64,000 nt of DNA from positions 7,394 through 71,393 of the forward strand of contig DASTLR010000008.1 of NCBI GenBank assembly GCA_035714745.1, in the 5' to 3' direction. Source of the stretch: Minisyncoccota bacterium. GTDB lineage: Bacteria; Patescibacteriota; Minisyncoccia; Phycocordibacterales; UBA6065. The first letter of the stretch is position 1, and every line of letters starts with the position of its first letter. Positions 47,145 through 64,000 of this stretch are shown here, piece after piece. Both the position numbers and the translations under genes were made by a program. The notes below the pieces were generated by a model. The model saw only the letters and a list, made by a program, of their open reading frames with translations. It had not been told where the DNA came from and made no database searches.

Positions 47145-47155
47145 AACCGCCACAT

Positions 47156-47713: not shown

Positions 47714-47776
47714 GCGAAACCGCCTCTGACTGCTCTAACTTACAGGAAAACGGCCAAAAGTAAACTCGGCGCCGGA

Positions 47777-48235: not shown

Positions 48236-48314
48236 GCGGGAATTATACCACCAATCTTTGCCCCGCGGTCGGCTTTGTTGTAAGTTGTAGGGGCGGCAAA
48301 GAGCGATACTTGAC

Positions 48315-48401
48315 GGATAGGTGCCGGAGTGGTCTAACGGAACAGTCTTGAAAACTGTCGTCCCTTTACGGGGACCGTGAGTTCGAATCTCACCCTATCC
48401 G
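48315..48401 (+). tRNA. tRNA-Ser (anticodon UGA), type II with a long variable arm
   Basis: Acceptor GGATAGG/CCTATCC, anticodon stem ACAGT/ACTGT, loop CUUGAAA, variable arm CGTCCCTTTACGGGGACC and a T loop TTCGAAT. Confidence 0.8.
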
Positions 48402-48412
48402 CATAACGTCAT

Positions 48413-48817
48413 ATGAGACTCCTAGGCATCGATTACGGCAAGAAGAGAGTGGGCGTGGCCCTGTCTGACGACAAGGGCTTGATGGCGTTCCCAAAGGCGG
48501 TTTTGCCGAACGACAACTATCTCTTTACCGAGGTGCGCCGGCTGATCGAGTCGAACGAGATCGATACGGTGGTGGTAGGGGAGTCGAAGGATTACGCTAT
48601 GAGGGACAATTCCATTATGTCCAAGGCGCGCGCGTTCGCCGATGAGCTCAAGCGCGAGCTCGACGTCGTAGTGGTATACGAGCCGGAGCTCCTGACCTCG
48701 CACCAGGCCGCGCAGACCGGGCACGCTTTGGGAAAAACGGATATGATAGACGCGTCTGCGGCCGCGATTATCTTGCAAAGCTACATAGACAGGAAGAAGG
48801 AAGGGGAGAGAATTTAG
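48413..48817 (+). CDS. ruvX: Putative pre-16S rRNA nuclease / Holliday junction resolvase-like YqgF (RuvX)
   Basis: MRLLGIDYGKKRVGVALSD matches the YqgF/RuvX N-terminal motif. Confidence 0.85.
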   Translation: MRLLGIDYGKKRVGVALSDDKGLMAFPKAVLPNDNYLFTEVRRLIESNEIDTVVVGESKDYAMRDNSIMSKARAFADELKRELDVVVVYEPELLTSHQAAQTGHALGKTDMIDASAAAIILQSYIDRKKEGERI

Positions 48818-48842
48818 AATCTGGGATTTAGAATTTAGAATC

Positions 48843-49250
48843 TTGAACATGATTTCATACGACGATTTCGCAAAGGTGGAGATAAAGGCAGGCAAGATCC
48901 TCTCGGCCGAAAAGGTTCCCGAGACCGACAAGCTGCTCAAGCTCTCGGTCGATTTCGGCCCGCTGGCCCAGACCGTCGCTACGCTCTCGGTCGACGGCGC
49001 CCCGGCGGCCGAAGTGCAGATGACCGAGATGAAGCGCGACGTTCGCCAGATTGTCTCGGGCATCTCGATGTATTTCCCTGACCCTCAGGCCCTCGTCGGC
49101 AGGAAGTGCATGTTCGTCACCAACCTGGAGCCGCGCACCATCAAAGGCCTGCAGTCGAATGGCATGCTTTTTGCTCTGTCGACGAACGACGGCAAGTTCT
49201 CGCTCCTCGAGCCAGGCGCCGATATCCCCGAGGGCACCAAGGCCAAATAA
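48843..49250 (+). CDS. tRNA-binding protein (CsaA/Trbp111-type OB fold)
   Basis: FAKVEIKAGKILSAEKVPETDKLLKLSVDFG matches the MetRS-C/EMAP-like tRNA-binding domain. Confidence 0.7.
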   Translation: MNMISYDDFAKVEIKAGKILSAEKVPETDKLLKLSVDFGPLAQTVATLSVDGAPAAEVQMTEMKRDVRQIVSGISMYFPDPQALVGRKCMFVTNLEPRTIKGLQSNGMLFALSTNDGKFSLLEPGADIPEGTKAK

Positions 49251-49251
49251 T

Positions 49252-49872
49252 ATGTTCGAATTCCTGCAGCCGCAGCACCTGATCGCCGTCGCGGGCCTGG
49301 CCGGCGTCATCGCCGCCGTTTTCGCCGAGTCGGGGCTATTCTTTGGCTTCTTTTTGCCGGGCGATTCGCTCCTCTTTACCGCGGGCCTGGTGGCTTCGCA
49401 GGGCGCGCTCGATATCTGGTGGCTGGTCATAGGCTGCGCCATAGCCGCCATAGTGGGCGACAGCGTGGGCTACGCATTCGGCAAGAGGGTGGGACCCGCG
49501 CTCTTCTCGCGCGAGGATTCTCTCTTCTTCCATAAAAAGCATGCCGAACGGGCCAAGGCCTTCTATGGCCGGCACGGCCGCAAGGCGATCGTCCTGGCCC
49601 GCTTCGTGCCGATCGTCAGGACCTTTGCCCCTATCGTGGCGGGCGTCGGCGGCATGGCCTATCGCACCTTTGTCGCTTTTAACGTCATCGGCGGCGTGGT
49701 ATGGACCTTCCTTCTGACCCTGGCCGGCTATTTTCTGGGTCGGGCCTTTCCCCAGACCGAGAGGTATCTCTCGTATATCGTCGTCGGCATCATCGCCGTC
49801 TCGCTCGTGCCTGTAGCGGTCGAATGGCTCCGCGGCCGCGCCGCCGCTCGAAAGGCCGCTGCGGACCTGTAG
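49252..49872 (+). CDS. DedA/SNARE-associated family membrane protein
   Basis: ESGLFFGFFLPGDSLLFTAG...RFVPIVRTF, typical of DedA. Internal start of the tracked ORF. Confidence 0.8.
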   Translation: MFEFLQPQHLIAVAGLAGVIAAVFAESGLFFGFFLPGDSLLFTAGLVASQGALDIWWLVIGCAIAAIVGDSVGYAFGKRVGPALFSREDSLFFHKKHAERAKAFYGRHGRKAIVLARFVPIVRTFAPIVAGVGGMAYRTFVAFNVIGGVVWTFLLTLAGYFLGRAFPQTERYLSYIVVGIIAVSLVPVAVEWLRGRAAARKAAADL

Positions 49873-49884
49873 TATAATCTGTGG

Positions 49885-50880
49885 GTGAATTCTTTCATCA
49901 AAAAGGCGTTTCCCGTCCCTCGCGCCCTCATCATGGCCGACGTCTCGGTCGATACGAACGACGGCGAGCTGCGCTTCTTTGAATTCTCGCGCAAGGCGGG
50001 CACGCTCCGCCCGAAACGCTGCGGCGTCCTGGAGTTCCCGCGCACCCATGGCCCGGGCAGCGAGGAGAACGCCGCCCAGGCGGCTGCCGCCCTCAAGAAG
50101 TTCGCCGAGAGGTACGGCTATCAGACTGTCCAGTGCGTCATCCACGAGGGCGACGCCTATATCTTCAAGCAGAAGGTCCCGACGACCGATCCCTCGCTCC
50201 TGCGCGCCGCCATCGAAGCCTCGCTCGAAGAGAACGTGCCGATGCCTCCCGCCGAGGCGATCTTCGAGTATGACGTCCTCGCCATAGACAAGGTCCGCGG
50301 AGAGAGCACGGTCGTAGTCTCGGCCGTCTCGGAGAAGGTGGTCGAGAGATATCGAGCCCTCCTCGAGTCTGGGACGCTCGCGCCCGTCTCGTTCGAGACC
50401 GAGTCGCACGCCATCGCCCGCGCCTCTATACGCAAGGGAGACCAGGCTACCCACGCCGTCCTTTGCATCAAGGGCCACCATACCGTGGTCTTTATCGCCG
50501 AGAGGGGCAAGGTCTCGTTCAGCTCCTCTATAGAGGTGGGGTCGGCCGACATCGAGGCCGCCAGCGCCAAGGACCCCGGCTCATTCGACGCCCTCTTGCC
50601 CGTGTTCTCGACGCTGCAGGACGAGCTTGGAAAGATATTGACCTATCATAAGGCCGCCGCCAAGAAAGAAGGGGTCGAGCAGGATATCGCCGATGTCATC
50701 CTGCTGGGCAGCTGCGCCCGCATCCCGGGGTTCTCGCGCTATATATCCTTGGCGTCCAAGCTGCCCGTGCGCGTCGGCTCGGTCTGGGCGAACGCTCTGT
50801 CGCCCGAGAGCGAGGTGCCCGACCTGGATGAAAAGAGCTCGCTCGACTATGCGGCCCTGATCGGCATGTATCTGAACTGA
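49885..50880 (+). CDS. pilM: Type IV pilus assembly protein PilM (actin-like ATPase fold)
   Basis: 331 aa with the PilM architecture, directly followed by pilN- and pilO-like genes. Confidence 0.7.
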   Translation: MNSFIKKAFPVPRALIMADVSVDTNDGELRFFEFSRKAGTLRPKRCGVLEFPRTHGPGSEENAAQAAAALKKFAERYGYQTVQCVIHEGDAYIFKQKVPTTDPSLLRAAIEASLEENVPMPPAEAIFEYDVLAIDKVRGESTVVVSAVSEKVVERYRALLESGTLAPVSFETESHAIARASIRKGDQATHAVLCIKGHHTVVFIAERGKVSFSSSIEVGSADIEAASAKDPGSFDALLPVFSTLQDELGKILTYHKAAAKKEGVEQDIADVILLGSCARIPGFSRYISLASKLPVRVGSVWANALSPESEVPDLDEKSSLDYAALIGMYLN

Positions 50881-50881
50881 T

Positions 50882-51418
50882 ATGCTCACCTTTCTCCCGC
50901 GCACATACAGGATCGAGGTCGAACGCGAATATCGCCGCCGCGTCTATGCGGTCGCCGCCTGGCTCTTGGCGTTGCTCATGCTCGTCGGGGCGGCCCTGGT
51001 CCTGCCGACGTACGCGAGGCTCTCTTCCGAGAAGGCCGCGGCCGAGGCCGCACTGCGGGCGGCGTCTCAGTCCGCCGGCGGGGATGCGAGCCTCGTCGAT
51101 ACGCGGTTGGCCGACCTTCAGGACAAGGCCAAGGCCCTCGACGACCTGGCTGCAAGGCGGAGCCTTGTCTGGGCCGTGGAGCGGGTCGCGGCCGCTCGGG
51201 AGCAGGCCGGCGTCTCCATCACCGGGCTCGGCATAAAAAGAGGAGGGGGCGCCGGCTCGATCAGCGTCTCGGGCACGGCATCGTCCAGAGAGGCGCTCGT
51301 CGCCTTTACCAAGGCCCTCCAGGCGGAGCCGTCGTTCAAGGACGTCTCCTTGCCGGTATCCGCCCTGGCAAAGAGCGTCAGCTTGCCGTTCTCGCTCGGC
51401 ATCGACACGAATCTCTGA
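50882..51418 (+). CDS. pilN: PilN-like bitopic protein
   Basis: N-terminal TM helix plus a coiled coil, in the pilM-pilN-pilO gene order. Confidence 0.5.
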   Translation: MLTFLPRTYRIEVEREYRRRVYAVAAWLLALLMLVGAALVLPTYARLSSEKAAAEAALRAASQSAGGDASLVDTRLADLQDKAKALDDLAARRSLVWAVERVAAAREQAGVSITGLGIKRGGGAGSISVSGTASSREALVAFTKALQAEPSFKDVSLPVSALAKSVSLPFSLGIDTNL

Positions 51419-51422
51419 TCCC

Positions 51423-51974
51423 ATGTATATCCGCACCAGCTACAAAGCGTCTCTCGTCATCGCTCTCGCCGCCGCGGTCGCGCTGGCGGCGGCATGGGGC
51501 TTTATCGCCTACCGCTCTTCCGTCCTGCGGGATCAGATCGTCGGCCTCGAGGAGAAGGCGGCGGCGGCTTTGGCTCGCGGGCAGCGGGCGCAGGAGGCTC
51601 GCGCAGCCTTGCGCGAGACTGGGGCTGCTATCCGCTCCGTAGATGCCCGCTTCCTCTCAAAGGACGACATCCCAGGTTTTATCAGCCTAGTAGAAAGCCA
51701 AGGCGCCGCTGCCGGGGTAAAGGCTGACGTCGGCTCGATCGACCTGGACGAGAAGGGCGACCTCTCGGAGCTCAAGACCCTGCGCTTGCGCCTGACCGCC
51801 AAGGGGGCATGGAAGGACTGCGTGGCCTACGCCGCCGCTCTCGAGGACCTGCCGTACGCCGTCCAGGTGGACGCGCTGGCCCTTTCCAAGGCGGCGGGGG
51901 CGGCAGGCGTCTGGAATATGACCGTCGAGATGACGGCCTTGGTAGACTTACAGAGAACCGATGAGACGATTTAA
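51423..51974 (+). CDS. pilO: PilO-like bitopic protein
   Basis: N-terminal TM helix, a coiled coil and a C-terminal PilO-like domain, in operon position. Confidence 0.45.
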   Translation: MYIRTSYKASLVIALAAAVALAAAWGFIAYRSSVLRDQIVGLEEKAAAALARGQRAQEARAALRETGAAIRSVDARFLSKDDIPGFISLVESQGAAAGVKADVGSIDLDEKGDLSELKTLRLRLTAKGAWKDCVAYAAALEDLPYAVQVDALALSKAAGAAGVWNMTVEMTALVDLQRTDETI

Positions 51975-52236
51975 CCTTCACATCCGCAGGCTAGGAGAGG
52001 ATCCCGCTTCCGACTGGCATCGATGCCTGGCGCTGTTCGCCGCATGCCTAGTCTTTGCGGCGCTCGTCGATGGGGCTCTCTATCTGACCCTGGCGCGCGG
52101 GGCGTCCGAGCTTCAGGCCGTCTCGGCGATCCAGGCGCCTGCCGCGCCGTCGACGCCCGTGCGCCTTGGCGCCGCGGCAGCCGAAAAGGCGCCGAGGACG
52201 GTCTCTCCGGCCGCCCAGAGAGACCCATCGCTCTAG
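51961..52236 (+). CDS. Hypothetical small membrane protein (possible PilP-like anchor)
   Basis: 91 aa with one TM helix, overlapping the pilO stop. Confidence 0.3.
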   Translation: MRRFNLHIRRLGEDPASDWHRCLALFAACLVFAALVDGALYLTLARGASELQAVSAIQAPAAPSTPVRLGAAAAEKAPRTVSPAAQRDPSL

Positions 52237-52280
52237 GCTTGCCTGGACAATGTCCGGCGAAAGCGCTTTGATGGGCCGAC

Positions 52281-52353
52281 GCCCCCGTAGTTCAATGGAT
52301 CAGAACACTGGACTTCTAAGCCAGTTATGTTGGTTCGATTCCAACCGGGGGCA
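52281..52353 (+). tRNA. tRNA-Arg (anticodon UCU)
   Basis: Acceptor GCCCCCG/CGGGGGC, anticodon loop CUUCUAA and a T loop TTCGATT. Confidence 0.75.
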
Positions 52354-52370
52354 CACGCGAAATGTACGCG

Positions 52371-52394
52371 AAAAGCCGGCATGTGCCGGCTTTT
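52371..52394. terminator. Bidirectional rho-independent terminator between convergent tRNA genes
   Basis: AAAA-GCCGGC-atgt-GCCGGC-TTTT. Confidence 0.6.
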
Positions 52395-52397
52395 CAG

Positions 52398-52473
52398 TGG
52401 TGCGCCCTGAGGGACTTGAACCCCCGACCTTCTCAGTGTAAATGAGCTGCTCTACCAACTGAGCTAAGGGCGC
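52398..52473 (-). tRNA. tRNA-Val (anticodon UAC), CCA encoded
   Basis: Acceptor GCGCCCT/AGGGCGC, D arm GCTC-AGTTGGTA-GAGC, anticodon loop UUUACAC and a 3' ACCA. Confidence 0.8.
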
Positions 52474-52602
52474 ATGGTATATGGCTGCGATGAGCTACGA
52501 CAGAGAAACAATAACGGATTTCGCCCGAAAACTCAAATAAACGCCGTTTTCTTGCTCATTTTTGGCTCGTATGTTAGATTGGTGTCCTATCACGCAACCC
52601 GC

Positions 52603-53040
52603 ATGGAAAGCAAAGTAATCACCTCTCCGGTAGACATGAAGGCCCGAGTAGCCCTCGGCCTCCGCTCGGGCGACACCGTCCGCGTCTGGCAAAAGATCAA
52701 GGAGGGCGACAAGACCCGCCTCCAGGCCTTCGAGGGCCTCATCCTCTCCCGCAAGCACGGCGACGAAGCCGGCGGCACCTTCACCGTCCGCAAGGTCATC
52801 GACGGCGTCGGCGTCGAGAGGATCTTTCCGCTCTATTCGCCCCTCATCGACGAGGTCGAGGTCATCCGCAGGTCCAAGGTCCGCAGGTCGAAGCTCTACT
52901 TCGTCCGCGAGAAGGCGGCCAAGGCCGTCAGGAAGCAGATGCGAAACCTCCGCGCCGAGAAGCCGGGCAAGGACACCAAGGCAGGCAAGCTAGAGGAGCC
53001 AGAGGCTCCTGCAGCAGCTCCAGAGGCGCCGGCGAAGTAA
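52603..53040 (+). CDS. rplS: 50S ribosomal protein L19
   Basis: [38 protein letters not shown] matches L19. Internal start of the tracked ORF. Confidence 0.9.
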
Positions 53041-53060
53041 TCTCCATACAGCGCAAACGA

Positions 53061-53085
53061 AAAACAGCCCGCGGGCTGTTTTTCT
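53061..53085 (+). terminator. Rho-independent terminator after rplS
   Basis: AAAAA-CAGCCCGCGGGCTG-TTTTTC. Confidence 0.65.
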
Positions 53086-53095
53086 CTGTCTTGGG

Positions 53096-53177
53096 TGCGC
53101 GGAAGAGGACTTGAACCTCCATGCCTTGCGGCGCTACCACCTCAAGGTAGTGTGTCTGCCAATTCCACCATCCGCGC
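53096..53177 (-). tRNA. tRNA-Leu (anticodon GAG), type II
   Basis: Acceptor GCGCGGA/TCCGCGC, a 3-bp D stem, anticodon stem CTACC/GGTAG, loop UUGAGGU, a 13-nt variable arm and a T loop TTCAAGT. Confidence 0.75.
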
Positions 53178-53258
53178 ATGTATGTCGAACCGTCCCGACG
53201 TGCGGCCATAATAGCCGATTGCTCACATTTTATCAATATCCGTCCTATACTAGGCGGT

Positions 53259-53735
53259 ATGAACGAAAAGAAGCTGCGGGTCATATTCGTGGCGAGCCTC
53301 TGCCTCAAGGCCTTGGGCGCCGCTCTCCAGATCGGCCTGGGCTCGCTTCTGCTCGTCACGGGCAGGGTCAGTTCCCTCATAGCCGCGGCCGCCGCGAACG
53401 AGCTTATCGAGGATCCTAACGATTTCTTTGCCCGCCATGCCGCGTCGGCGCTCTCGCACTTCTCGCCCCACCTGCAATACGTCGGGGCCGCGTACCTCCT
53501 CCTCCACGGCGCGGCAAAGGTCGTCCTGATCTGGGCGCTGATAAAAGAGAAGCTCTGGGCCTATCCCGCCTCGCTCGCCCTCTTCTCGCTCTTCATCGTC
53601 TACCAGCTGGTCCATGCCACGTGGGGAAGCCTGTTCCCCTTGGCTGCTTTCGCCGCCTTCGAAGTGTTCCTCCTCTGGCTCATCTGGCACGAATACCACT
53701 ACGTCCTCCGCAAGCGCGGACTGCCAATAGAATAG
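53259..53735 (+). CDS. DUF2127-like membrane protein
   Basis: Four hydrophobic helices, start at the internal MNEKK. The N-terminal extension of the tracked ORF overlaps tRNA-Leu. Confidence 0.45.
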   Translation: MNEKKLRVIFVASLCLKALGAALQIGLGSLLLVTGRVSSLIAAAAANELIEDPNDFFARHAASALSHFSPHLQYVGAAYLLLHGAAKVVLIWALIKEKLWAYPASLALFSLFIVYQLVHATWGSLFPLAAFAAFEVFLLWLIWHEYHYVLRKRGLPIE

Positions 53736-53824
53736 GGGAGGGACGGCCAGAGCTCGATTTTACGGCCTGAATCTGATATAACTGTCTTGCTCCGACAGCC
53801 CGTTCCCGCCGCGCGCGAGCAGCA

Positions 53825-53897
53825 TGGTGCCTATAGTTTAGTGGTAAAACTCCGGATTGTGGTCCCGGCATTGTGGGTTCGATTCCCACTAGGCACC
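53825..53897 (+). tRNA. tRNA-His (anticodon GUG) with a G(-1) extra base; boundary of the AT-rich island
   Basis: G-1 plus acceptor GTGCCTA/TAGGCAC, anticodon loop UUGUGGU, T loop TTCGATT and discriminator C. Confidence 0.75.
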
Positions 53898-55490
53898 CCT
53901 TAAGTCTGTTATTCCGATAGTCTCTCGGAAAGCAGGACTCTTTTCTGCAAAAGCCTTTTCCATTGGGAAAGGTTTTTGCTTGTTATTGAGGCAAAGCGTA
54001 CCAGTGGCAATCAACGCCTCCATAATTGGGCTAGGGACAGCTTTAGCGATCTTGCGGTCAGATACCTCAAATCTCTCCCAAAATATGCTCAAGTACGTCC
54101 TTTTAAGCTCTGGAGAAGCCTGTTGGTAAGCCTCGCCTAGGTTTCGAGCAAGAAGTATTACCTTCTGAATTACATCAACTTTGATGTTCTTATTGGCATC
54201 GAGCTTGGCGAGTTCGCTTCCACAAGAAACTATTATCTCCCTTTGTCTTTCTTTGATTCGAGTGAAGTCGTTATCATCAAGTACGCCAGAGATAAGCTTT
54301 TCCTCAGCGAGCTGGAGTTTTGATTCGGCGGCAGACTTAGTCGCCAGAATCTTTCGCTTCTCACGTTCCGTATCCTGCTTTTTCAGTGAATAGATGAACT
54401 TGACCCTCTCAAGCAGACGCTCAATGAACTTCTCAGAGAACTGAATTCCTCGAAAGTGTTCGACTACCTGATCTTCGAGGTCTTTTACGTTAACTCCTCG
54501 ATCGTTATCTGGAATAACGAATGGTTTCTGTTTATTCGTTGCATAAGGACGATAGTAGCTTTTATCCTTTTTCTTCTCATGGTTCTCGCCTATGAATCTC
54601 AAACCGCTTATAGCTGAGAACACATAGCCACGAAGAAGGAAATCATATTTTCGCCTCCGGCAGACACCATGACCATTATTCAATCGAACTTGTCGGCATC
54701 TTTCAAAGACTTCCTGAGATGTGAGAGGCGTGTGTTTACCCATTTTTCTCATTTCACCCCAGACCATTTCTCCATGGTAAAAAGGGTTTGCAATAATCTT
54801 AAACATATTCGCCAGACCGAGCTTTCCTCCCGTGTGTGATGTAAGTCCTTTCTTGAAAATCCATTCTCGCAATTCGAGCATTGGATGGTTACCCGTAGCG
54901 TACTTTCGGAAAAGTTCTGTAACAACCGGACCTTTTATTGGATCAACGACGATAATGCGTTTATCGGGATTATTTTCTTCGCCGACATTGAGATAACCAA
55001 GCGTAGCTCGCGTAGGCCACCAGCCGTCATTAAACCGCTGTTGCATGCTCTTCTTGGTCTTACGAGACGTTATCTGTGATTGAAGCTGATTAACGCCTGC
55101 AATGATCGTATCCATGAAGTTTCCCTCTGGAGTATCTTCAATTCCTGGCTGGGAGATAGAAACGAGCGTCGCAGAGTATTTCTTCAGAAGTGCCTTTATG
55201 GTGGTGTGATCGTTCACGTTGCGGGCAAGCCTGTCGGTATCGAGTACGAAGACCGCCCTGATATCTTTCTCTTGCACACGAACGAGCATATCCTGAAGAG
55301 CGGGACGATTCATTGTTGTAGCTGACTTACCAGCATCTACGAAGACCCCATTGTCCGTCAGTTCGTATTTACCGCTTTCTGTAATTGTTTTCTTACAGAG
55401 ATCCTCCTGTGTAGCAAGCGAATAACGCCCGCCCTTTGCCTGCTCCTCTGTGGAGACACGGCAATATATAACTGCTTTATCTTTGGTCAT
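53889..55490 (-). CDS. Large serine recombinase (resolvase/invertase N-terminal domain, recombinase domain and zinc ribbon)
   Basis: AVIYCRVSTEEQ with the catalytic Ser, resolvase domain motifs and a long C-terminal recombinase region. Its 3' end overlaps the tRNA-His 3' end by about 9 nt. Confidence 0.85.
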   Translation of the reverse strand: MTKDKAVIYCRVSTEEQAKGGRYSLATQEDLCKKTITESGKYELTDNGVFVDAGKSATTMNRPALQDMLVRVQEKDIRAVFVLDTDRLARNVNDHTTIKALLKKYSATLVSISQPGIEDTPEGNFMDTIIAGVNQLQSQITSRKTKKSMQQRFNDGWWPTRATLGYLNVGEENNPDKRIIVVDPIKGPVVTELFRKYATGNHPMLELREWIFKKGLTSHTGGKLGLANMFKIIANPFYHGEMVWGEMRKMGKHTPLTSQEVFERCRQVRLNNGHGVCRRRKYDFLLRGYVFSAISGLRFIGENHEKKKDKSYYRPYATNKQKPFVIPDNDRGVNVKDLEDQVVEHFRGIQFSEKFIERLLERVKFIYSLKKQDTEREKRKILATKSAAESKLQLAEEKLISGVLDDNDFTRIKERQREIIVSCGSELAKLDANKNIKVDVIQKVILLARNLGEAYQQASPELKRTYLSIFWERFEVSDRKIAKAVPSPIMEALIATGTLCLNNKQKPFPMEKAFAEKSPAFRETIGITDLRGA

Positions 55491-55987
55491 TGTTTATAGA
55501 TGAACTCCATTGGGACGAATCCCTTCCGTGAAGTGAATTGCCCGTCGAGTATTCTGATCTCTCGTACTCCCAATGAAGAATTGCTAAGTACCAACACTTT
55601 CGTTCCCGCCTTAACAAAATAGGCTTCATTGTTGCCGATAAGCTCGATCAGTCCATCTGAATCGTTAGCGATTGCAGACTTTGAGTATTTATCAAATGCT
55701 TCCTTGGTTGAAGGAACCATGACTTCGTCTTTTCCTTCGATTCTGAGATAACCCTCTTCACCCACGCTTACTCGAGTAGAAGTTTGAGGAGTGGAGGTTA
55801 CTGCACGCTCACTTACATTGTTAGATGCCTTAGCGAGAGATATGGTTATAAATAAAAAGAAGATCAGTGCGACGACAGCAAGAGGATGCCTACGTGCCCA
55901 TGATCTTAAATCTGCCTTACAATTCGGACATCGTTTCGCTTTCTTAGGGATATCCGTCTGACACTCCTTACATTTTTTTGTTTCCAC
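55487..55987 (-). CDS. Hypothetical zinc-ribbon membrane protein, translationally coupled to the recombinase
   Basis: N-terminal CKECQ..CPNC zinc ribbon, a TM helix and an extracytoplasmic domain. The stop overlaps the recombinase start (ATGA). Confidence 0.4.
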   Translation of the reverse strand: METKKCKECQTDIPKKAKRCPNCKADLRSWARRHPLAVVALIFFLFITISLAKASNNVSERAVTSTPQTSTRVSVGEEGYLRIEGKDEVMVPSTKEAFDKYSKSAIANDSDGLIELIGNNEAYFVKAGTKVLVLSNSSLGVREIRILDGQFTSRKGFVPMEFIYKQ

Positions 55988-56256
55988 GTGATTAGAAATA
56001 AACGATTAATCCCGTGGAAAGCTCCCACACAAAAAACCTGCCACAGGTAGGAACCGAAGTCCCTCGTGAAGGTTTCCCCGCACGGCCAGTTAGACAACCC
56101 TATGACAGGCTCTTTATGTCTAACTGGACTTATAGCCATGCTCTGGAGAAAACTCCAGAGGTTAGGCTCATGAACGCTATTTAGTTGTAAGGTAATTATG
56201 CTCTTTTTCATCCTTTTTGCCAAAATGACTTTGAAACGCTGACGCCTATACGTTTT

Positions 56257-56472
56257 TTAGTTGTCGGCTATAGGCGGTTTAGTCGCTTCTGACTGAGAGT
56301 CGCCAGTTTCCTTTTTGACGTTATCCACCAAGACCGCCCGTCTTTCTCTCATGTATCTCTCAAAAATGCTGTAAACCAGTTGATTAATGGACACCTTTTC
56401 ACAAAGAGCATCAATTTTGAGAAATGAATGCTGTTCGCGGGTAACTTTTATGTGTTTGGTGAACTTGAACAT
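56257..56472 (-). CDS. Hypothetical small protein (71 aa)
   Basis: ORF in the island followed by a hairpin. No motif recognised. Confidence 0.3.
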   Translation of the reverse strand: MFKFTKHIKVTREQHSFLKIDALCEKVSINQLVYSIFERYMRERRAVLVDNVKKETGDSQSEATKPPIADN

Positions 56473-56842
56473 GTAATTAAGTTGTTAACGCTATAGGGTA
56501 GGCGGAGCCCATATCCCTCGTCGGTAAATAATTGAAAGGTGTTACTCAGATTTCTCTCTGCACCTTTTGTAGAAAGACTTAAAGTGAATGGCGGTCTTCA
56601 CCCGAAGCTTCTCGGTTTCCCCGATGGCTTTCTTTAACGCCACACCTTCTACTTCATTCATGTGGCGGGAATCGCGAACCCTATAGGTATAGGCATCGCC
56701 CTGTATCGCGGCACTTTTTTAACGACGCACACCGCTCTACCCCTCACGTCGGAACTGAAAAGAGCCCTAATTTAGAAGGGCAGACCAGTACCCCCTAAAT
56801 CAGGGCTCGTTTCAGAGCTTAATTACTGGTCTGTCCCAAATA

Positions 56843-56981
56843 TTACTTATTGCCTTTCAATTCAGCCTCAATGAGCTCGATTGCCTCCTGGAGAAGAAGA
56901 TCAGCAACTCGGCGAGCCAAAGTAACCTCTGGGTCTTTTACCCAAGTAGGCTCTTCTATTCGCTTATCCTGCTTCTTTGCC
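56843..56981 (-). CDS. Hypothetical small protein (46 aa) followed by a strong hairpin terminator
   Basis: My hand translation gives MAKKQDKRIEEPTWVKDPEVTLARRVADLLLQEAIELIEAELKGNK. It is followed by nested inverted repeats at 56761-56837. Below the ORF-track size cutoff. Confidence 0.3.
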
Positions 56982-57059
56982 ATAATTTATTATTTGCAGG
57001 GCGATTATAAAAAAGCAGAGCAAGTTCATTGCTCCGCTTAAAGGGGGTGGTTAAGAGGG

Positions 57060-57752
57060 TTATAGTTTTCTACTCTTTATTTTGGCCATTATTTTTCTTG
57101 CCTGCGAGAGAGACACTCTCAAATGTCCGGCCATTTTTTCATCACCGCAATCAGGATTTGCCTTCAAAAACTCCTTGGCTTCCCATTCGAGGTTTTTTGT
57201 TTTTTCTTCTTTCGGTTTAACTTTTTTTGAGAGTGGATGCTTCGATGAAATTGAGTTCTTAAGACTCCTGTCGATTTCTGACCAATTGTCCTCAATGTAT
57301 TTAATGAGCTCAGGTTTGCTAGCCCCAGGTTCGACGTAGATTTCTGCGTAAGCGAAATTCTCGATGTCATCACCAGCATTTTTTATTTTATGAGAAACTC
57401 CCAAGGATGTATTCGAAATCCCTCCGAACAGGGTTTTTTCTACTATTGCCGCTACGACCAAGCCGTTATCAAAATTAAATTTTTTTGATACCGAATCATA
57501 CAACTCTGATTGTGCTTCCAGGAAAATCCTCTGAGTTTCTGGTTGGCGTATGGTATGACCTGCCAGTTTCATACCTCGCGTCAGTTTTATTTGTTCGATG
57601 TCGGAGAGCCATTTCCGAAACTCTTGAACAGTTTTAACCTCGTTTCTAAAAGGCAAAAAAGCTACCTTAAGTGCGTCTATGTCCTCATCCAGGTCGATTT
57701 TGAGCATCAATTTATCTACCCACTCTTCTAGTCTGTTGGCTGGTCTCTCCAT
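57060..57752 (-). CDS. Hypothetical protein with a possible C-terminal helix-turn-helix
   Basis: 230 aa. The C-terminal segment EKMAGHLRVSLSQARKIMAKIK resembles an HTH. Confidence 0.4.
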   Translation of the reverse strand: MERPANRLEEWVDKLMLKIDLDEDIDALKVAFLPFRNEVKTVQEFRKWLSDIEQIKLTRGMKLAGHTIRQPETQRIFLEAQSELYDSVSKKFNFDNGLVVAAIVEKTLFGGISNTSLGVSHKIKNAGDDIENFAYAEIYVEPGASKPELIKYIEDNWSEIDRSLKNSISSKHPLSKKVKPKEEKTKNLEWEAKEFLKANPDCGDEKMAGHLRVSLSQARKIMAKIKSRKL

Positions 57753-57805
57753 AGCTTAATCTTATGTCATTTTGGACGTGCATAAAATGACAAAAGGAAT
57801 AGTAT

Positions 57806-58942
57806 GTGGGTATGCCAGATATTCCCAAACAGTATTTTCTATACTATTTCCCTTACCTCACAATGAGAGATGTCGAGGAGATAGATTTTGGATTTATCAA
57901 GATTTGGAACTTTGATAAGAAGAAGGATGCTTATATCTCTGACCCTGCTCTTAAGGCAAAAATTACACAGATTCTTGCTAACTACCAATCCCAGTTTTAT
58001 CCAGTTAGAGGTATTGGAATAGCTTCTATTGGTACTAATGATTTTAGGAAATTTACACCTGAAGAGGCGGCGGATCTTCATACTGCAAAATACATTCTTT
58101 TCATTTCCGCTCTTGCATATAACAACCTCCATACTGCAAATGTAAATATCGGACACGCTATGTTTAGTTCGGAAAATTTCGAGAGCATGATATTTAGCAT
58201 GGTCTTAGACAGTGAGTACATGTCTGAACCTGGAGGATTCGTCATAAATATGCTTCATGGAGGTATTGAGATAAGTAAGAATCTCCAAAAGACACCCTCT
58301 TACATATTAAATCCGTCTCGCCTGAATTTAGATGTGGATTTGTTTAATACACTCATCAAACTAAGGAAGCGTAGGCCAAAATTCTTTAAAAGATTAATAT
58401 CGGCAATCGAAGTTTTCTATGAAAGCTATTACAATTCGCCTCAAGTCAGTGAAAAGGCACGTATCTTGCTCCTTACAAGTGCTTTTGAGATGCTTTTACA
58501 GTCTGAACCTGGGGCAGGCAGAGAAAAGACAAAAAACTTTATCGCTTTGCATGCTAACGTTCCCGAAGATCGAAAATATTCTTATTACTCCGAGAGAAGA
58601 GGTGGTGTAGTCAGGGAGAGCGGAACCCGAAAGGAAATATGGGCTGATAGGTTTTTTAGTCTTCGAAATCATATTGCTCACGGAGATATCGTTCCTAAGA
58701 CAGAATTTCTTTATAAGTCACAAAGGCACTTCGATATTGCCCCGCTATTCTTTGTCTTTACTCTTAAAAAGAAAATAGACCTGTATTTAAGGAGAGATAT
58801 CTTTGGTGACGAAATTGAGTGGAAGAAGTGGACAGATGAAAATACAATCCCTATTACGGAGTATGAGGGGTTTGCGTACAATGCAACTAAAGGGAAATTG
58901 AGAAAACTTTTTAATAAACTAAGAAAGAGGAAACGCCCATGA
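57806..58942 (+). CDS. HEPN-motif protein (Rx4H), putative abortive-infection or RNase-type defence protein
   Basis: LRNHIAHGD contains the R-x4-H HEPN catalytic motif in the C-terminal third. 378 aa with a basic tail. Confidence 0.45.
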   Translation: MGMPDIPKQYFLYYFPYLTMRDVEEIDFGFIKIWNFDKKKDAYISDPALKAKITQILANYQSQFYPVRGIGIASIGTNDFRKFTPEEAADLHTAKYILFISALAYNNLHTANVNIGHAMFSSENFESMIFSMVLDSEYMSEPGGFVINMLHGGIEISKNLQKTPSYILNPSRLNLDVDLFNTLIKLRKRRPKFFKRLISAIEVFYESYYNSPQVSEKARILLLTSAFEMLLQSEPGAGREKTKNFIALHANVPEDRKYSYYSERRGGVVRESGTRKEIWADRFFSLRNHIAHGDIVPKTEFLYKSQRHFDIAPLFFVFTLKKKIDLYLRRDIFGDEIEWKKWTDENTIPITEYEGFAYNATKGKLRKLFNKLRKRKRP

Positions 58943-59658
58943 AAAACCTACCCAAAGTAAAAAACAATTCCCAGACCGATCCCTTGGAGTCGGTTGAGTT
59001 ATCTGGAAAGCAAATAAAAGATGTCATTGAGTCCTCCGGAGTAAATCTAGTCGCCAGTTTTATTCCTGGACTTGGCAAGTTTCTTGAATGTATAGACTAT
59101 GCAAACCAAAAAATAAGAGAAGAGAAACTGAATAATGTATTAAAGATTTTCATATCTCATTTCGATTCATTGGATGAGGCTCTCGCTCAAATTAAGAAAC
59201 TCGTCAGCAATCGATCTGGAATTATTTTGTTTCAAAAAATAATACAGATCGTAGACAACGGGTCTTCTGATGATGAATGGTTAAACATACTAGCAAACAT
59301 ACTGAAAAACATAGCGGAGGAAGATATTACTAAACACTTTGATGAAAGGAGTTATTTTCTCGCACAAATTGATCGCCTAACACCACAGGCCTTGATTATT
59401 ATTAGTAAATACGACCTCTGGATGCAGGCTCATATCCAAGATACAACCACTACTAGCGGACAAACAGCCTCTGGTAATTGGAGTGAGCAAGTTACTGGTT
59501 TTCTCAAAACAAAAATTGGAATTTCTGATGGTCAGACTGGAGCTAGGATCAATCATTCCTTCCGTGAACTGGAATCGGCGGGGATGATTAAATTGGAAGG
59601 ACACCAAATCAGGCTCACCCCTGTTGGTAACGAGATTCGCCGAATGATGAAAAAATAA
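58939..59658 (+). CDS. Hypothetical protein, overlapping partner of the HEPN gene
   Basis: The start overlaps the HEPN gene stop (ATGA). No motif recognised. Confidence 0.4.
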   Translation: MKNLPKVKNNSQTDPLESVELSGKQIKDVIESSGVNLVASFIPGLGKFLECIDYANQKIREEKLNNVLKIFISHFDSLDEALAQIKKLVSNRSGIILFQKIIQIVDNGSSDDEWLNILANILKNIAEEDITKHFDERSYFLAQIDRLTPQALIIISKYDLWMQAHIQDTTTTSGQTASGNWSEQVTGFLKTKIGISDGQTGARINHSFRELESAGMIKLEGHQIRLTPVGNEIRRMMKK

Positions 59659-59663
59659 ATTCA

Positions 59664-60437
59664 ATGAAAGAAGGAACTTGTAAATTATGTCTGGAATACA
59701 AAAAGTTATGCAAAGAATCTCATATAATTCCGAAGTCTTTATATAGACTTCTAGCTGGAGAAAATAATCAACTGATATATATCAACGAGGAGAAATCGAA
59801 ACCTAAATACAATAGCGAATACGAAGGCGGTATTTTGTGTGAGAATTGCGATAACAAAGTGATTGGGTTACTTGATGACTATGCGGCAAAATTCATCTAC
59901 GGCGAGTTTCCAAATAAAGGGACTTCGGGGACGGAATGGATAGAAGGGCGTGAGACTGTAATTCGAGAAAACGATCCGAGTTACGATTATTCGCGTTTTA
60001 AACTATTTCTGCTTTCTGTTTTATGGAGAGCTAGTATCTCTTCGAGACCTTTCTTTCAAAAACTGAAGCTTCCTTCCGCCATAGAAGAAGATTTGAGGCA
60101 AAGAATCCTTACGGGTAGCCCAGGACAACCAGACGAATATCCATGTTTCATACACTTGCCCCCATTAATCACTCAACCGGACGGAAGGCGTGGTTTTGAG
60201 ACGTTCTACATGCAAACTATGTCTCCAATTTATATGGATAGGGGTGAGCTGAAAATGTGTGAGTTCATCATTCAAGGTATGCACTATTACTTCATAATTG
60301 CTCGTCCTGCGAACATGAATGTTCTTCCTTCGGTTGATACAAACAGACTAACCATGGCTTTTAGTAAGCCTGAGGAACATACCCAAATTATTCAAACCAT
60401 ACTCGATTTTATGAAGGGGCATCCTAAACGGAAATGA
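59664..60437 (+). CDS. HNH-like nuclease domain protein (CxxC..ESHIIP..CxxC N-terminus)
   Basis: GTCKLCLEYKKLCKESHIIPKS ... CENCDNK resembles an HNH zinc-finger nuclease core. Confidence 0.4.
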   Translation: MKEGTCKLCLEYKKLCKESHIIPKSLYRLLAGENNQLIYINEEKSKPKYNSEYEGGILCENCDNKVIGLLDDYAAKFIYGEFPNKGTSGTEWIEGRETVIRENDPSYDYSRFKLFLLSVLWRASISSRPFFQKLKLPSAIEEDLRQRILTGSPGQPDEYPCFIHLPPLITQPDGRRGFETFYMQTMSPIYMDRGELKMCEFIIQGMHYYFIIARPANMNVLPSVDTNRLTMAFSKPEEHTQIIQTILDFMKGHPKRK

Positions 60438-60487
60438 AACTAATGCACATTTGTTGACTATACCCCTAGGGGGTATATACTTTCGAC

Positions 60488-60757
60488 ATGACAAAAAATC
60501 CATCGAAAACAAAATTATCTCGTCGTCTCAAAATCGTTGAGGGTCAAATCAGAGGCCTTCAAGAGATGATCGAAAAGGACGCGTATTGTATAGACGTCAT
60601 CACCCAAACCTCGGCCGTGAAGCAAGCTCTCTCGGGTATTGAGGACGCTCTTATGGAACATCACCTCTCTACCTGTGCTGTAGATCAGATGCAGGGCGGC
60701 AAGTCTGAGAAAACTAAGCAAGAAATCCTTAAGGTCTATAGGCTTAAGCGAAAATAA
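60488..60757 (+). CDS. csoR: CsoR/RcnR-family metal-sensing transcriptional repressor
   Basis: RLKIVEGQIRGLQEMIEKDAYCIDVITQ...H...C, the CsoR Cys-His-Cys signature. Lies directly upstream of copA. Confidence 0.8.
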   Translation: MTKNPSKTKLSRRLKIVEGQIRGLQEMIEKDAYCIDVITQTSAVKQALSGIEDALMEHHLSTCAVDQMQGGKSEKTKQEILKVYRLKRK

Positions 60758-60760
60758 TCT

Positions 60761-63052
60761 ATGTATACCCAAACCTACAAAGTAAAAGGAATGCATTGTG
60801 CCTCATGTGCAGGCATAATCGAAAAAACCTTCAAAAAAACGGAGGGTGTGAAATCTGCTGAGGTAAATTACGGAACTGAGACTGCAAAAGTCGCTTTTGA
60901 TACTTCTAAAGTAAATCCACACCGCCTTTCAGAGAAAATCGAGAAATTGGGGTACTCTCTCGTCGTGCCTTCCGCAGAGGATATGAATATGTCGTCATCT
61001 GAACACGCGGCTCACCTAGGTCTCAACCAATCTAAAAAAGAAAAGCTTATTGAGATAAAAGATATGCAAAGCAAGGTCTTTTCCGTCATCCCACTCGCAG
61101 TCTTTAGTATCTTCGTCATGGGATGGGATATTCTCGCTCAGTTCGGCGTTCTGCCCGAAATGAGTCGAACGATATATGAGTTCTTCCACCACCTACTCCC
61201 AATATTCGCGACATACACTCTTTTCGTAGTCGGCAAGCCGTACCTTATGGGCATGTTCCGTTTCTTCCGCTATGGCAAGGCGAACATGGACACGCTCATA
61301 GGCATAGGAACGTCAGTGGCTTTTCTCTATAGCTTTATTGTTACTGCATTTGAAGAATCTCTCGCTCCATATATTAACGTTGAGCATAATTATTACGACG
61401 TAACGATTGTCGTCATCACATTCATTGCTCTCGGTAAATACCTTGAAGCCCGTGCAAAGGTGAAAACAGGCGATGCAATCGAAAAGCTTGTTGGCCTTCA
61501 GGCAAAGACCGCTTTGGTTATAAGGGACGGCAAGGAGCAAGAGATCGCCGTATCGGATGTAAGGCATGGAGACCTCATCATCGTAAAGCCAGGTGCAAAG
61601 ATCCCTGTAGATGGAGTTGTAGTTGAGGGTGCTTCATTTATAGATGAATCAATGATCACGGGTGAACCAATGCCCGTCGAGAAGAAAGTAGGAGATTCTG
61701 TCGTGGCGGGTACCATAAACACTAATAGCACTTTTACATTCAAGGCTACAAAAGTCGGTTCTGAAACGCTTATTGCTCATATCATAAAAATGGTAGAGGA
61801 AGCTCAGGGCAGTAAAGCTCCCATTCAAGCCCTCGCAGATAAAATATCGGCTGTATTCGTCCCCATAGTCCTCGTAGTCGCTTTTGTTACCCTTGGAGTG
61901 TGGTTACTTGTTGGAACAAGCTCTTTTGGTTTCTCTCAGGCTCTCTCATACGGATTAACTTCATTTGTAGGCATACTTGTCATCGCTTGCCCATGTGCCC
62001 TCGGCCTTGCCACTCCCACCGCAATCATCGTCGGCGTAGGTAAAGGTGCTAAGGAGGGCATCCTCATTAAGGACGCCGCTACGCTCGAAAAGCTCCACAA
62101 AGTTGATACCATCGTCGTAGATAAGACGGGTACGATCACCAGAGGCAAACCAGAACTTACGAGCATACAGAACCACTCAAAGCTTCCTGACGATAAGATC
62201 ATTTCTATCCTTACTTCTCTCGAAAGCAAATCGGAGCATCCTATAGCTCACGCTGTCATTGAATATGCCAAGGCTAAGTCTATTAGTCTCGTACCTGTTG
62301 AAAAACCAGAGATCATCAAGGGTAAAGGAATCAAAGGGACTATCTCGGGTACAGAATATTTCGCAGGCAACACGAGGCTTCTTTCCGATCTCGGCCTTTC
62401 GATCGATACCCAAAAGCTCGAGGTTGATACGAAAGAAGGAAAGACGCCTGTCATACTCTCAACCAAGAGCGAAATTCTAGCTGTCGTCATGGTCGCAGAT
62501 GCCGTGAAGAACGAAGCAGTGGAAGCAGTTAAGAGCCTTCACAAGCTTGGTATCAAAATCGTTATGCTCACGGGCGATAATAAACATACCGCTCAAGCTA
62601 TCGCAAAAGAGGTCGGCATTGATGATGTGGTCGCTGAAGTGTTGCCAGACGACAAACTTAATAAGATCAAAGAACTTCAAGAAGCGGGTCATATCGTAGC
62701 TATGGCGGGAGACGGCGTTAATGACGCTCCTGCTCTCGCTCAGGCGGATGTCGGCATTGCTATGGGCACAGGAACCGATGTCGCTATAGAGACCGCAGGC
62801 ATTACGCTTCTTCATGGAGATATTTCAAAGCTTGTGAAAGCAATACGGCTCTCGAAGTTAACAATGCGAGGCATCAAGCAGAATCTTTTCTGGGCGTTTA
62901 TCTATAACGTAGTCGGCATTCCTCTCGCCGCAGGATTATTCTTCCCATTCTTCGGGTGGCTTCTCAGTCCCGTATTCGCAGGTCTCGCTATGGCGTTCTC
63001 AAGCGTTTCAGTCGTTGGAAATTCGCTTCGCCTTAAAGCTAAAAACTTATAA
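60761..63052 (+). CDS. copA: Copper-translocating P1B-type ATPase
   Basis: N-terminal heavy-metal-associated (HMA) domain GMHCASCA, a TM CPC motif (ACPCALG), DKTGT phosphorylation site and GDGVNDAP. Confidence 0.9.
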
Positions 63053-63055
63053 TCA

Positions 63056-64000
63056 TGAAAACATACACTTTCCACATCCAAGGAATGCACTGTAAAGCAT
63101 GTATAGCTCTTACCGAAAGTGAACTCGGCGATATTCAGGAGATCACGCACGCTAAAGCATCGCTTGATAATCACACAGTGACAATTTCTGGTGAATTTGG
63201 AGACAAAACTCCTGAAGAGATAGCGAACAGCCTTACGTCAGTTCTCAAACCACACGGCTACACACTTTCTGTCGAGAAACAGAATCATGTAGTTAATTGG
63301 TCGCAGTTTAAAGTAGCCCTCCCAATCGCGGCCGCATTTGTCGCCGTATTTATCATTCTCCAAAAGCTTGGAATAGTGAATCTCGTGACCACGTCGAATG
63401 TCGGATACGGGACGGCGTTTCTAATCGGTATGATTGCTTCAGTATCAACTTGCATGGCAGTCGTGGGTGGACTTGTTCTCTCCATGTCGGCCAACTATGC
63501 GAAAGAGAATGATAAAGTTCGCCCGCAAGTTCTTTTCCATATCGGCAGACTTGTATCATTCTTCGTGCTTGGTGGCGTAATTGGGGCTATCGGGTCAGCA
63601 TTTCAGCTTAACGGAACAGGTACATTCATTTTGAGTCTCCTTGTTGCGATAATCCTTTTGATCCTTGGCATAAACCTGCTTGATATATTCCCGTGGGCAA
63701 AGAAGCTTCAACCTTCGCTTCCAAGCTTTATAACGAATCATGTTCGAGGCTTGAAAAAAATAAACCACACACTTACACCCCTTCTTATCGGCGTTGCCAC
63801 CTTCTTCCTTCCATGTGGGTTCACTCAATCCATGCAAATATACTCGCTCACAACGGGTAGTTTCTGGACTGGAGCGATGACGATGTTTTTCTTTGCACTT
63901 GGAACGCTTCCTGTACTCGCGATTCTATCCTTTAGCTCGATGGGAATACACGACAAGGTGAAGTCGGGCATCTTCTTCAAATCGGCAGGTCTCATCGTAT
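63056..64000 (+). CDS. HMA-domain (GMHCKAC) protein fused to a multi-TM domain with paired TM cysteines (CcdA/TauE-like); 3'-truncated at the window end
   Basis: My hand translation from the ATG at 63056 gives MKTYTFHIQGMHCKACIALTE followed by six or more TM helices including FFLPCGF. No stop before the window end. Confidence 0.5.

Follow-up and report, generated by a model that had tools for sequence, protein, structure and literature searches.

What placed a block of AT-rich genes, copper-handling proteins among them, flush with the 3' end of tRNA-His in the chromosome of a member of the Patescibacteria, and how far does that block extend? The locus lies in a 64,000-nucleotide stretch of contig DASTLR010000008.1 (here called the window), for which an earlier reading of the letters alone, the sequence-only reading, had proposed a genomic island inserted at the tRNA by a large serine recombinase, with copper-resistance and defence-like cargo running on past the window. 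The analysis described here makes it very probable that this is an integrative genomic island in a Paceibacterota (Patescibacteria/candidate phyla radiation, CPR) chromosome, placed at the last bases of tRNA-His by its own large serine recombinase. There is nothing out of the ordinary in the island as such; its integration module, by contrast, is of an unusual form, and the features that set it apart are the targeting of a tRNA, an attachment site (attP) inside the open reading frame (ORF) of the integrase, and an association with LOOT RNA. Little on mobile elements of Patescibacteria was found in the papers searched, and the element described here is a fully delimited island with both of its junctions. 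Targeting of tRNA genes by serine integrases is seldom reported and is treated as unproven in the literature: t(m)RNA genes are used by 44.5% of tyrosine integrases and by only 4.9% of serine integrases, and for the latter (14 of 297 cases in the survey) 'experimental proof will be required' (PMC7192596). The family to which this island belongs offers many independent cases (tRNA-His, Lys, Asn and Glu) with exact junctions.

Boundaries and composition of the island

It is clear that the composition of the chromosome changes at the tRNA-His gene, whose 3' end is the exact point at which guanine-plus-cytosine (GC) content falls from 0.59 to 0.43. Windows of 500 nucleotides (nt) give values of 0.60-0.62 as far as 53749 and of 0.42-0.47 starting at 53750, and the means are 0.586 for 1..53826 and 0.430 for 53900..64000, so that the drop described by the sequence-only reading holds on recalculation and a uniform GC profile is excluded. 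The shift in codon usage that was to be looked for with it is equally plain: GC at third codon positions (GC3) has a mean of 0.42 in 11 island genes (range 0.36-0.49) and of 0.80 in 18 flanking host genes (range 0.74-0.85), two disjoint ranges (Mann-Whitney p = 1e-5).

The right end of the island was read on L001, a locus from the 306-kb source scaffold ERZ28572737 (BAND20-1_SAMN13481442 scaffold_10), which adds 10 kb past CopA and whose coordinates are converted as window = L001 + 50760. The expectation that the island continues past the window proved correct as to the fact and mistaken as to the amount, for GC is back to 0.60 at L001 position ~13800, only 584 bases beyond the window end, and these bases add one gene (cupredoxin-like) and no large unseen cargo. 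The whole measures 10,685 bp, from window position 53900 to window-equivalent 64584. Host genes of like composition flank it on both sides within the one 306-kb contig, those past the right boundary on L001 being DUF2238, PG_binding_1, DUF2914, FolD, SIMPL, SecE, NusG and L11. Ribosomal protein L19 has up to 91% identity to that of Candidatus Paceibacterota metagenome-assembled genomes, and the NCBI records of the island proteins (HEU0080821-27) are filed as Candidatus Paceibacterota.

An abrupt change in composition that falls exactly at a tRNA gene would also be seen if two organisms of unlike GC had been joined in assembly at a conserved tRNA, with no island at all, and several short contigs do end 58-260 nt beyond the junction. 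Such a chimera is nevertheless highly improbable: GC of the host type (0.60) and syntenic host genes return 10.7 kb further on in the same 306-kb contig, the left junction is identical in the assemblies of at least five samples (four further ones being L088, L089, L090 and L005), two assemblies, the second being the independent Logan assembly L002, agree exactly at the right junction, and homologous recombinases lie at the same tRNA in other genomes.

The recombinase and its attachment junctions

The gene that overlaps the tRNA encodes, as had been read earlier, a 533-amino-acid (aa) large serine recombinase. Its Resolvase domain (PF00239, E 2.3e-29) spans residues 6-156 and is accompanied by a Recombinase domain (PF07508, E 2.7e-09, 37.7 bits, cut-off 21.1); the catalytic serine stands in the motif RVST, of which R11, V12, S13 and T14 are nearly invariant in the homologue alignment. 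A PHROG integrase family is matched at 1.8e-71, the nearest named relatives in NCBIfam are CcrB, CcrC and XisF-like proteins, all far below cut-off, and the 374 homologues collected come mostly from Patescibacteria. Its stop codon, which reads cta at 53889-53891 of the plus strand, falls within the tRNA, so that gene and tRNA overlap by 9-11 nt, and the last codon (Ala) and the stop of the 533-aa form are tRNA-antisense sequence past the core common to the two junctions. This overlap had been taken to mark the attachment site; the site is indeed at the tRNA end, but the overlap is more than a marker, for the gene spans attP.

The common core consists of the last bases of tRNA-His, ACCCC (53895..53899 on the attL side; L001 13820..13824, window-equivalent 64580..64584, at attR). 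With the junction shown by a slash, attL reads TAGGCACCCC/TTAAGTCTG and attR reads GTCTCGACCCC/GTGGCATC, and ACCCC is all that they have in common. In L091 and L095 the two junctions have GGGT in common in the sense of the recombinase, which is ACCC on the tRNA strand, and the same GGGT/ACCC is found in L001. The right end of the island carries an element of ~80 nt (L001 13745..13823) that is kept in L026 (86%), L012 and L008, its similarity ending after CTCGACCC(C). Past tRNA-His, uninterrupted loci read CACCC/ATCGTT.. (L022), ATCGTT.. (L044) and ATCAAT.. (L023), and since the L022 and L044 sequences match the host arm at attR of the L012 and L095 islands, the exchange can be placed within the last tRNA bases.

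In the proposed mechanism the attP of a circular island would recombine with an attB composed of the tRNA-His acceptor end and the sequence after it, the predicted sites being ...GATTCCCACTAGGCACCCCGTGGCATCTCGAGGGGTGACC... for attB and ...CCGACCTGTCTCGACCCCTTAAGTCTGTTATTCCGATAG... for attP. The crossover would fall inside the common core ACCC(C), and would therefore leave the tRNA intact and create no long repeat. The second copy of the tRNA-His 3' end foreseen by the sequence-only reading is indeed missing: with up to 3 mismatches allowed, a 20-nt query run over 22 kb finds the tRNA itself and nothing else, and in general repeat searches the two island ends were not joined by any direct repeat of at least 12 nt. 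The absence of a long tRNA direct repeat is expected of this enzyme because it is a serine recombinase.

Most islands that target tRNA genes use tyrosine integrases (PMC4383910; PMC7192596), and the locus could be imagined as a tRNA-restoring island or prophage of that kind, with a tRNA fragment at its far end and the serine recombinase a mere passenger resolvase or invertase. This is scarcely credible, as there is no tyrosine integrase among the island ORFs, neither a copy of the tRNA 3' end nor a terminal repeat was found in the searches just described, and the ORF of the serine recombinase runs through the junction in frame both here and in many homologous islands. The island has no phage structural, packaging or lysis genes, its PHROG matches being limited to the integrase and to families of unknown function, and only one close relative of the recombinase was found in IMG/VR.

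The habit of reading into a tRNA is widespread among the homologues. Recombinase ORFs end 11-63 nt inside a tRNA gene in L091, L092, L095, L017, L027, L039, L048, L104, L106, L107, L111 and L184, and metagenome and IMG/VR relatives read into tRNA-His, Lys, Asn and Glu. In L108 (11585..11833, minus strand) a related recombinase ORF ends within a stretch that Rfam assigns to group I introns (RF00028, 55.5 bits), probably an intron-containing tRNA gene missed by ARAGORN.

The tRNA-His locus in relatives

In related species the tRNA-His gene is preceded by tRNA-Arg/Val, rplS, tRNA-Leu and sometimes a DUF2127 gene, and is followed by between 0.1 and 6 kb of DNA that varies among them; next come, in some genomes, DUF2238 or PG_binding and then DUF2914, p204, p187, FolD, SIMPL and NusG. 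In L023 just 100 bp separate tRNA-His from DUF2914. Four of 48 loci with enough downstream sequence (L017, L027, L039 and L048) hold an intact recombinase of a second clade, with 21-24% identity, which lies directly after tRNA-His and reads 11-62 nt into the tRNA. L026 retains an 87-aa remnant of the recombinase clade of the window (78% identity), and in L012 and L008 only the far-end element is left at the site. The closest recombinase homologues on long contigs (P0005, P0004 and P0013) all lie beside rplS and extend 32-56 nt into tRNA-His, and their cargo differs. Because of these variable or empty loci, and of the other recombinase islands found there, the tRNA-His site is regarded as an integration hot spot and the gene block as not ancestral. 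The comparison with relatives, which had been named earlier as a way to check the island, thus came out in its favour: content at the site in related species is variable or nil, and the block is not present at the locus in all of them. The hot spot downstream of rplS is, as judged from these gene orders, used by at least two recombinase clades. In L039, next to a second-clade recombinase and at the same tRNA-His site, there is a CsoR-CopA-HMA_DsbD-cupredoxin cassette with 46-68% protein identity to that of the window. Horizontal acquisition of the island is supported by its two boundaries, by the independent assemblies and by this comparison with relatives.

A recombinase gene divided by its attachment site

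When the right end of the island is joined to the left, as in an excised circle, the recombinase gene becomes an uninterrupted ORF of 565 aa with the C-terminus ...TDLRG/RDRSAILEIFSDRAYLDMIKERLEYVGSFSNAS-stop; the integrated gene ends in ...TDLRG-A-stop by way of tRNA-antisense sequence. Integration would leave the coding segment of the last 33 residues 10.7 kb off, at the opposite end of the island. As read from the two junctions, integration swaps a conserved 33-aa tail for a single tRNA-antisense codon (Ala) and a stop, and a gene that lies across attP in this manner yields two natural forms of the enzyme, of 565 aa and 533 aa. No serine integrase gene spanning attP was found described in a literature search of limited scope.

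The tail segment bears the marks of coding sequence. The same frame continues in the right-end elements of L026 (GRDRSAILEIFSDRAYLDTVKERLDYLVSFA-stop), L012 (GRDRSAILEVLGDREYLNIVGEKLEYVALFA-stop) and L008 (GDRSVILDTFSDVKYLNNLKERFDYLSTFA-stop), with a conserved stop and with peptides near-identical to the L001 tail. Differences among the four tails are distributed over codon positions 1/2/3 as 38/32/75, and those between L001 and L026 as 2/2/12. The tail motif stands in frame at the far island end in three independent islands that differ in cargo (L001, L091 and L095); in the latter two it is on the recombinase strand, 6.5 and 8.2 kb, respectively, upstream of the recombinase start codon and 8.1 and 9.8 kb from the recombinase 3' junction, and is in frame via the common GGT codon. 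It is contiguous with the recombinase in P0010, on L097, and in eight more distant homologues. L097 is a 6.4-kb JGI contig in the attP form, which lacks a tRNA and carries SMODS, SLATT_6 and HTH_17 genes along with a LOOT RNA; that it might be a circular contig was considered and dropped, no terminal overlap being found. A heuristic reading of 119 homologue C-termini assigns 55 to a class with a tRNA-antisense signature, 33 to one with a stop no more than 3 residues from the junction glycine, nine to the contiguous tail motif, five to a second tail type (VVEDVRT) and 17 to other kinds. The tails of P0014 and P0020 contain the segment preceding the junction twice (..VILSPVRG RGRNVSIRQTKLPDS VILTPEKG DYWESNPD), and these duplicated segments look like what is left of tandem insertions into a single tRNA.

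Does the division of the gene matter to the enzyme? In a real island attP might simply overlap the gene at its 3' end; the 33-aa tail would then be dispensable and its conservation a consequence of recombinase binding to the attP arm. Only ~6% of the protein is removed by the split, which detaches the 33 C-terminal residues and leaves all recognised Pfam domains in the 533-aa form; homologues also tolerate very different tRNA-antisense tails, and some conservation beside the core is what an attP half-site predicts. The conservation, however, runs for ~95 nt to the conserved stop, beyond a half-site of ~25 bp, and substitutions pile up at third codon positions; the peptide motif is common to distant homologues that are ~42-45% identical overall and unrelated in their DNA, and the tail has been kept in frame in the three independent islands named above. 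An incidental split is on these grounds unlikely.

A functional split is a further reading, offered tentatively and as no more than possible. The C-terminal helix of the integrase would then be coded across attP, and the free circle would make the full-length enzyme and the integrated copy a tail-less one, giving a built-in, state-dependent switch of activity or direction, with a tail peptide maybe made from attR; the arrangement would match, in bacteria and with a serine recombinase, the split integrases of the archaeal SSV type, and would form, together with a LOOT leader, the conserved core of a widespread family of tRNA-3'-end islands in Patescibacteria. The tail swap itself may alter the activity or direction of the recombinase, and a comparison of the 565-aa with the 533-aa form could reveal a new kind of direction control in serine integrases, enzymes in wide use for genome engineering. 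An in-frame ATG stands 0-2 codons upstream of the attR junction in four of six islands (L001, L026, L012 and L095), with the reading frames MPRG/RDRS.., MG/RDRS.. and MG/QGG.. (L001 13825..13833, minus strand), and a free tail peptide of 32-38 aa could therefore arise in the integrated state. Three of the four ATGs overlap the CCCAT that is read just past tRNA-His in uninterrupted loci; that of L001 sits further into a different host arm and has no evident Shine-Dalgarno sequence.

Several observations weigh against the account of an island inserted by its own recombinase, with a gene that runs across attP. Among the JGI metagenomes, which may not include the source population, nothing matched the predicted attB pattern, and the 565-aa protein of the circular form was absent, by exact look-up, from 15 billion predicted proteins; neither an empty attB nor a circular attP junction of this island was thus found, both of these being weak negatives. 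Four contigs with the flanking DUF2127 protein are all occupied or end just inside the island, none being empty, and the comparison of presence and absence was drawn with genomes of other species. The zinc-ribbon domain PF13408 was not detected in the recombinase or in its nearest homologues (P0002-P0011) and was detected in most others; its four cysteines are replaced at residues ~285-320 (SAISG...YRPY here, CNKCG...YHCN in P0012), and activity in this Cys-less subclade is, to judge from the missing ligands, not guaranteed. No recombination directionality factor was identified, and dyad symmetry is weak in attP and attB as reconstructed (9-11 matches in 22 positions, with no clear centre) and was dropped as evidence. 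Conservation of the tail may, finally, in part reflect constraint on attP as DNA.

Some of these points can be turned into an account of their own, in which truncation on integration inactivated the recombinase, as in the 'suicidal' integrases, and left a fixed, immobile remnant that now provides only copper resistance. The failure to detect an excised form or an empty site fits such a history, as do the decayed relatives at the same site (the 87-aa remnant of L026, and L012 and L008 with the far-end element only) and the missing zinc-ribbon cysteines. What makes it a rather doubtful account is that the recombinase ORF and its distal tail are both intact and join in frame, that the Cys-less subclade has at least 11 full-length members (P0001-P0011), and that the composition of the island is wholly un-ameliorated (GC3 0.42 against 0.80), which points to a recent arrival. 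In the main reading the island may still be capable of excision, and would presumably move between cells without transfer genes of its own.

LOOT RNA in the mobility module

A full-length LOOT RNA (Rfam RF03000) lies 61 nt upstream of, and on the same strand as, the gene for the zinc-ribbon membrane protein, an identification from the sequence-only reading that is borne out by the matches given in Table 1. The zinc-ribbon gene overlaps the start of the recombinase gene by 4 nt, and the two are therefore probably co-transcribed. The mobility module would accordingly read, in minus-strand order, LOOT RNA, small membrane protein gene, recombinase gene. This association recurs in related islands. 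LOOT RNA is present in all five islands of this clade that have an intact recombinase (L001, L091, L092, L095 and L097) and in two more distant islands (L108 and L111); an Rfam scan showed none in the islands of the second clade or in the remnants. Its place in the five closest islands is always 54-77 nt upstream of an ORF for a small membrane-anchored protein on the same strand, these proteins being non-homologous to each other, and in three of the five the recombinase gene follows directly after that ORF. Such a position would suit a leader of the mobility module or a small RNA belonging to it. The motif itself is known, and is listed in Rfam as a small RNA; here it goes with the recombinase modules of islands that target tRNA genes. 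The papers searched were silent on what it does and on its genomic surroundings, and with these islands an orphan motif gains a concrete genetic context.

Relation to known systems

Islands and phages with large serine recombinases, among them phiC31, Bxb1, A118, SCCmec CcrAB and the XisF elements, resemble this one in the combination of Resolvase and Recombinase domains, in the placing of the integrase gene at the island edge, and in junctions that have few bases in common and no long direct repeats. The present island departs from them in its tRNA 3' end target, in having attP inside the integrase ORF, in the missing zinc-ribbon cysteines and in its CPR host. A parallel to the divided gene is offered by the SSV-type (type I, 'suicidal') tyrosine integrases of archaeal viruses and plasmids, which are 'so far restricted to archaea' (PMC7253208). 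There, too, attP lies in the coding sequence of the integrase and the att site is translated (PMC7253208), and integration at a tRNA parts the gene to opposite ends of the element. In those systems, however, a tyrosine recombinase is broken into two inactive pseudogenes, whereas in this bacterial serine recombinase only the last 33 residues are detached and the recognised domains remain in one ORF. In the integration-dependent immunity of mycobacteriophage BPs and its relatives, attP likewise lies in a gene whose product changes at the C-terminus with integration and is thus not the same in the free and the integrated state (PMC4557955); in that case it is a repressor that is remodelled, by a tyrosine integrase and with a demonstrated consequence, and here it is the integrase itself. 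Islander-type tRNA islands are similar in that the integrase gene adjoins the tRNA at one end, insertion preserves the tRNA, and the composition of the cargo is foreign. They are dissimilar in that the island considered here lacks both a tyrosine integrase and a displaced tRNA fragment, the common segment being 4-5 nt.

Copper genes and remaining cargo

The features of the island are collected in Table 1. The identification of its copper genes by the sequence-only reading, as a CsoR repressor, a CopA ATPase and an HMA-fused membrane protein, was confirmed by domain matches. The CsoR-family protein has the Cys-His-Cys ligand pattern (..AYC.., ..H-L-S-T-C..; C...H-x3-C) in its translation and also resembles a RicR-like NCBIfam model (2.3e-19, below cut-off). 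The translation of CopA contains the motifs CPC, DKTGT and GDGVNDAP and an N-terminal CxxC HMA domain. The HMA-DsbD_2 gene, cut by the end of the window, is complete at L001 12295..13314 (window-equivalent 63055..64074). Together with the cupredoxin-like ORF these family assignments support a putative CsoR-controlled copper-efflux set composed of CopA, the HMA-DsbD_2 membrane protein and the cupredoxin-like protein, which would presumably confer copper tolerance. As in known CsoR-CopA operons, the repressor gene immediately precedes that of a CPC-type P1B ATPase whose N-terminus bears an HMA domain; unlike in those operons, the set is extended by the HMA-DsbD_2 and cupredoxin-like proteins and carried as mobile cargo. 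In this cassette, genes of putative metal resistance are seen to pass between CPR genomes that differ widely in base composition.

Table 1. Features of the island, with coordinates in the window unless a locus is named, and LOOT RNAs of related islands
Feature	Position	Strand	Evidence
tRNA-His(GUG), integration target	53827..53899	+	ARAGORN; Rfam 53827..53897, 62.4 bits
Large serine recombinase, integrated form, 533 aa	53889..55490	-	Pfam Resolvase and Recombinase
Zinc-ribbon protein, 166 aa, predicted membrane anchor	55487..55987	-	weak DZR match; NCBI name; phrog_14275 1.4e-08
LOOT RNA (Rfam RF03000), full length	56049..56168	-	84.1 bits, gathering threshold 46.4; model positions 1-121 of 121
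71-aa ORF	56257..56472	-	ORF
230-aa hypothetical protein	57060..57752	-	ORF, sub-threshold matches only; NCBI name 'hypothetical'
Apea-like HEPN family protein	57806..58942, start 57806 (GTG, 378 aa) or 57863 (ATG, 359 aa)	+	motif
239-aa hypothetical protein (p239)	58939..59658	+	ORF; phrog_15873 (unknown function) 7.5e-21
257-aa protein (p257), large uncharacterised family	59664..60437	+	four invariant Cys, S-H-I-x-P motif
CsoR-family copper-sensing repressor	60488..60757	+	PF02583 1.2e-23, 83.7 bits, cut-off 22.8
CopA-type P1B copper-exporting ATPase, 763 aa	60761..63052	+	E1-E2_ATPase 3.7e-59; Hydrolase; HMA 1.1e-16
HMA-fused DsbD_2 membrane protein, 339 aa	63055..64000 (cut by window end)	+	DsbD_2 2.1e-34; HMA 4.7e-09
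Cupredoxin-like ORF, 130 aa, uncalled, past window	L001 13333..13725		PF13473 Cupredoxin_1 9.2e-09
33-aa recombinase tail segment, far island end, past window	L001 ~13722..13819	-	
LOOT RNA in relative	L091 9557..9676		
LOOT RNA in relative	L092 4548..4667		
LOOT RNA in relative	L095 7877..7997		
LOOT RNA in relative	L097 3227..3338		
LOOT RNA in relative	L108 7498..7619		
LOOT RNA in relative	L111 76..199		

Between the mobility module and the copper genes lies a less readily classified set of cargo, for which the earlier assignments fared unevenly. The HEPN-motif protein is sound as to the motif, for R287-N-x-I-x-H292-G (RNxIxHG), with G293 included, is invariant in 30 homologues; the protein itself scores 16.7 bits against PF18739, below the cut-off of 24.4, and five of the 30 homologues reach that family (best 7.8e-07). 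The family comprises ~75 hypothetical proteins, and its profile had no match among PDB sequences. The protein is a probable RNase of the defence or abortive-infection type. The gene for p239 overlaps the HEPN gene by 4 nt and had been regarded as its partner, a claim that found no support. A conserved two-gene system was rejected, the neighbours of a HEPN homologue in two other contexts differing from p239 and p257 in length and Pfam content, as compared on called genes and not on their sequences. A copy of p239 at 65% identity occurs in the reduced island of L008, and its relatives are all hypothetical proteins.

The protein p257 had been taken for an HNH-like nuclease, and this too is unsupported apart from a motif: there is no Pfam match at E up to 5, HNH_5 is matched by two of 52 homologues (best E 0.032), and no nuclease appears among the PDB sequence matches. 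The family is large (3139 representatives at E up to 0.001), and p257 has a confident predicted structure, yet no Pfam family and no solved structural neighbour. The 71-aa ORF, at most a putative small regulator of the kind named in the sequence-only reading, matched nothing in Pfam, NCBIfam, PADLOC or PHROG. PADLOC recognised no known defence system in the cargo; its lone hit, a Cas12a fragment on the 230-aa protein at 15.9 bits, was set aside as spurious. The ~590 nt between the 71-aa and 230-aa ORFs (56473..57059) contain no convincing gene, the source assembly having only a 39-aa ORF there and no Rfam match at the gathering threshold.

Elsewhere in the window, ARAGORN also calls a 'tRNA-Stop(tta)' at 42244..42317 (plus strand), and gives the same call in L014. 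This was rejected as a register error, because the fold from 42245 is a canonical cloverleaf with the anticodon loop CTTTTAA, that of a tRNA-Lys(UUU). Milder dips in GC, to 0.49-0.56 against a background of ~0.60, occur at 1..3000, 15000..18000, 25000..28000 and 46500..49000.

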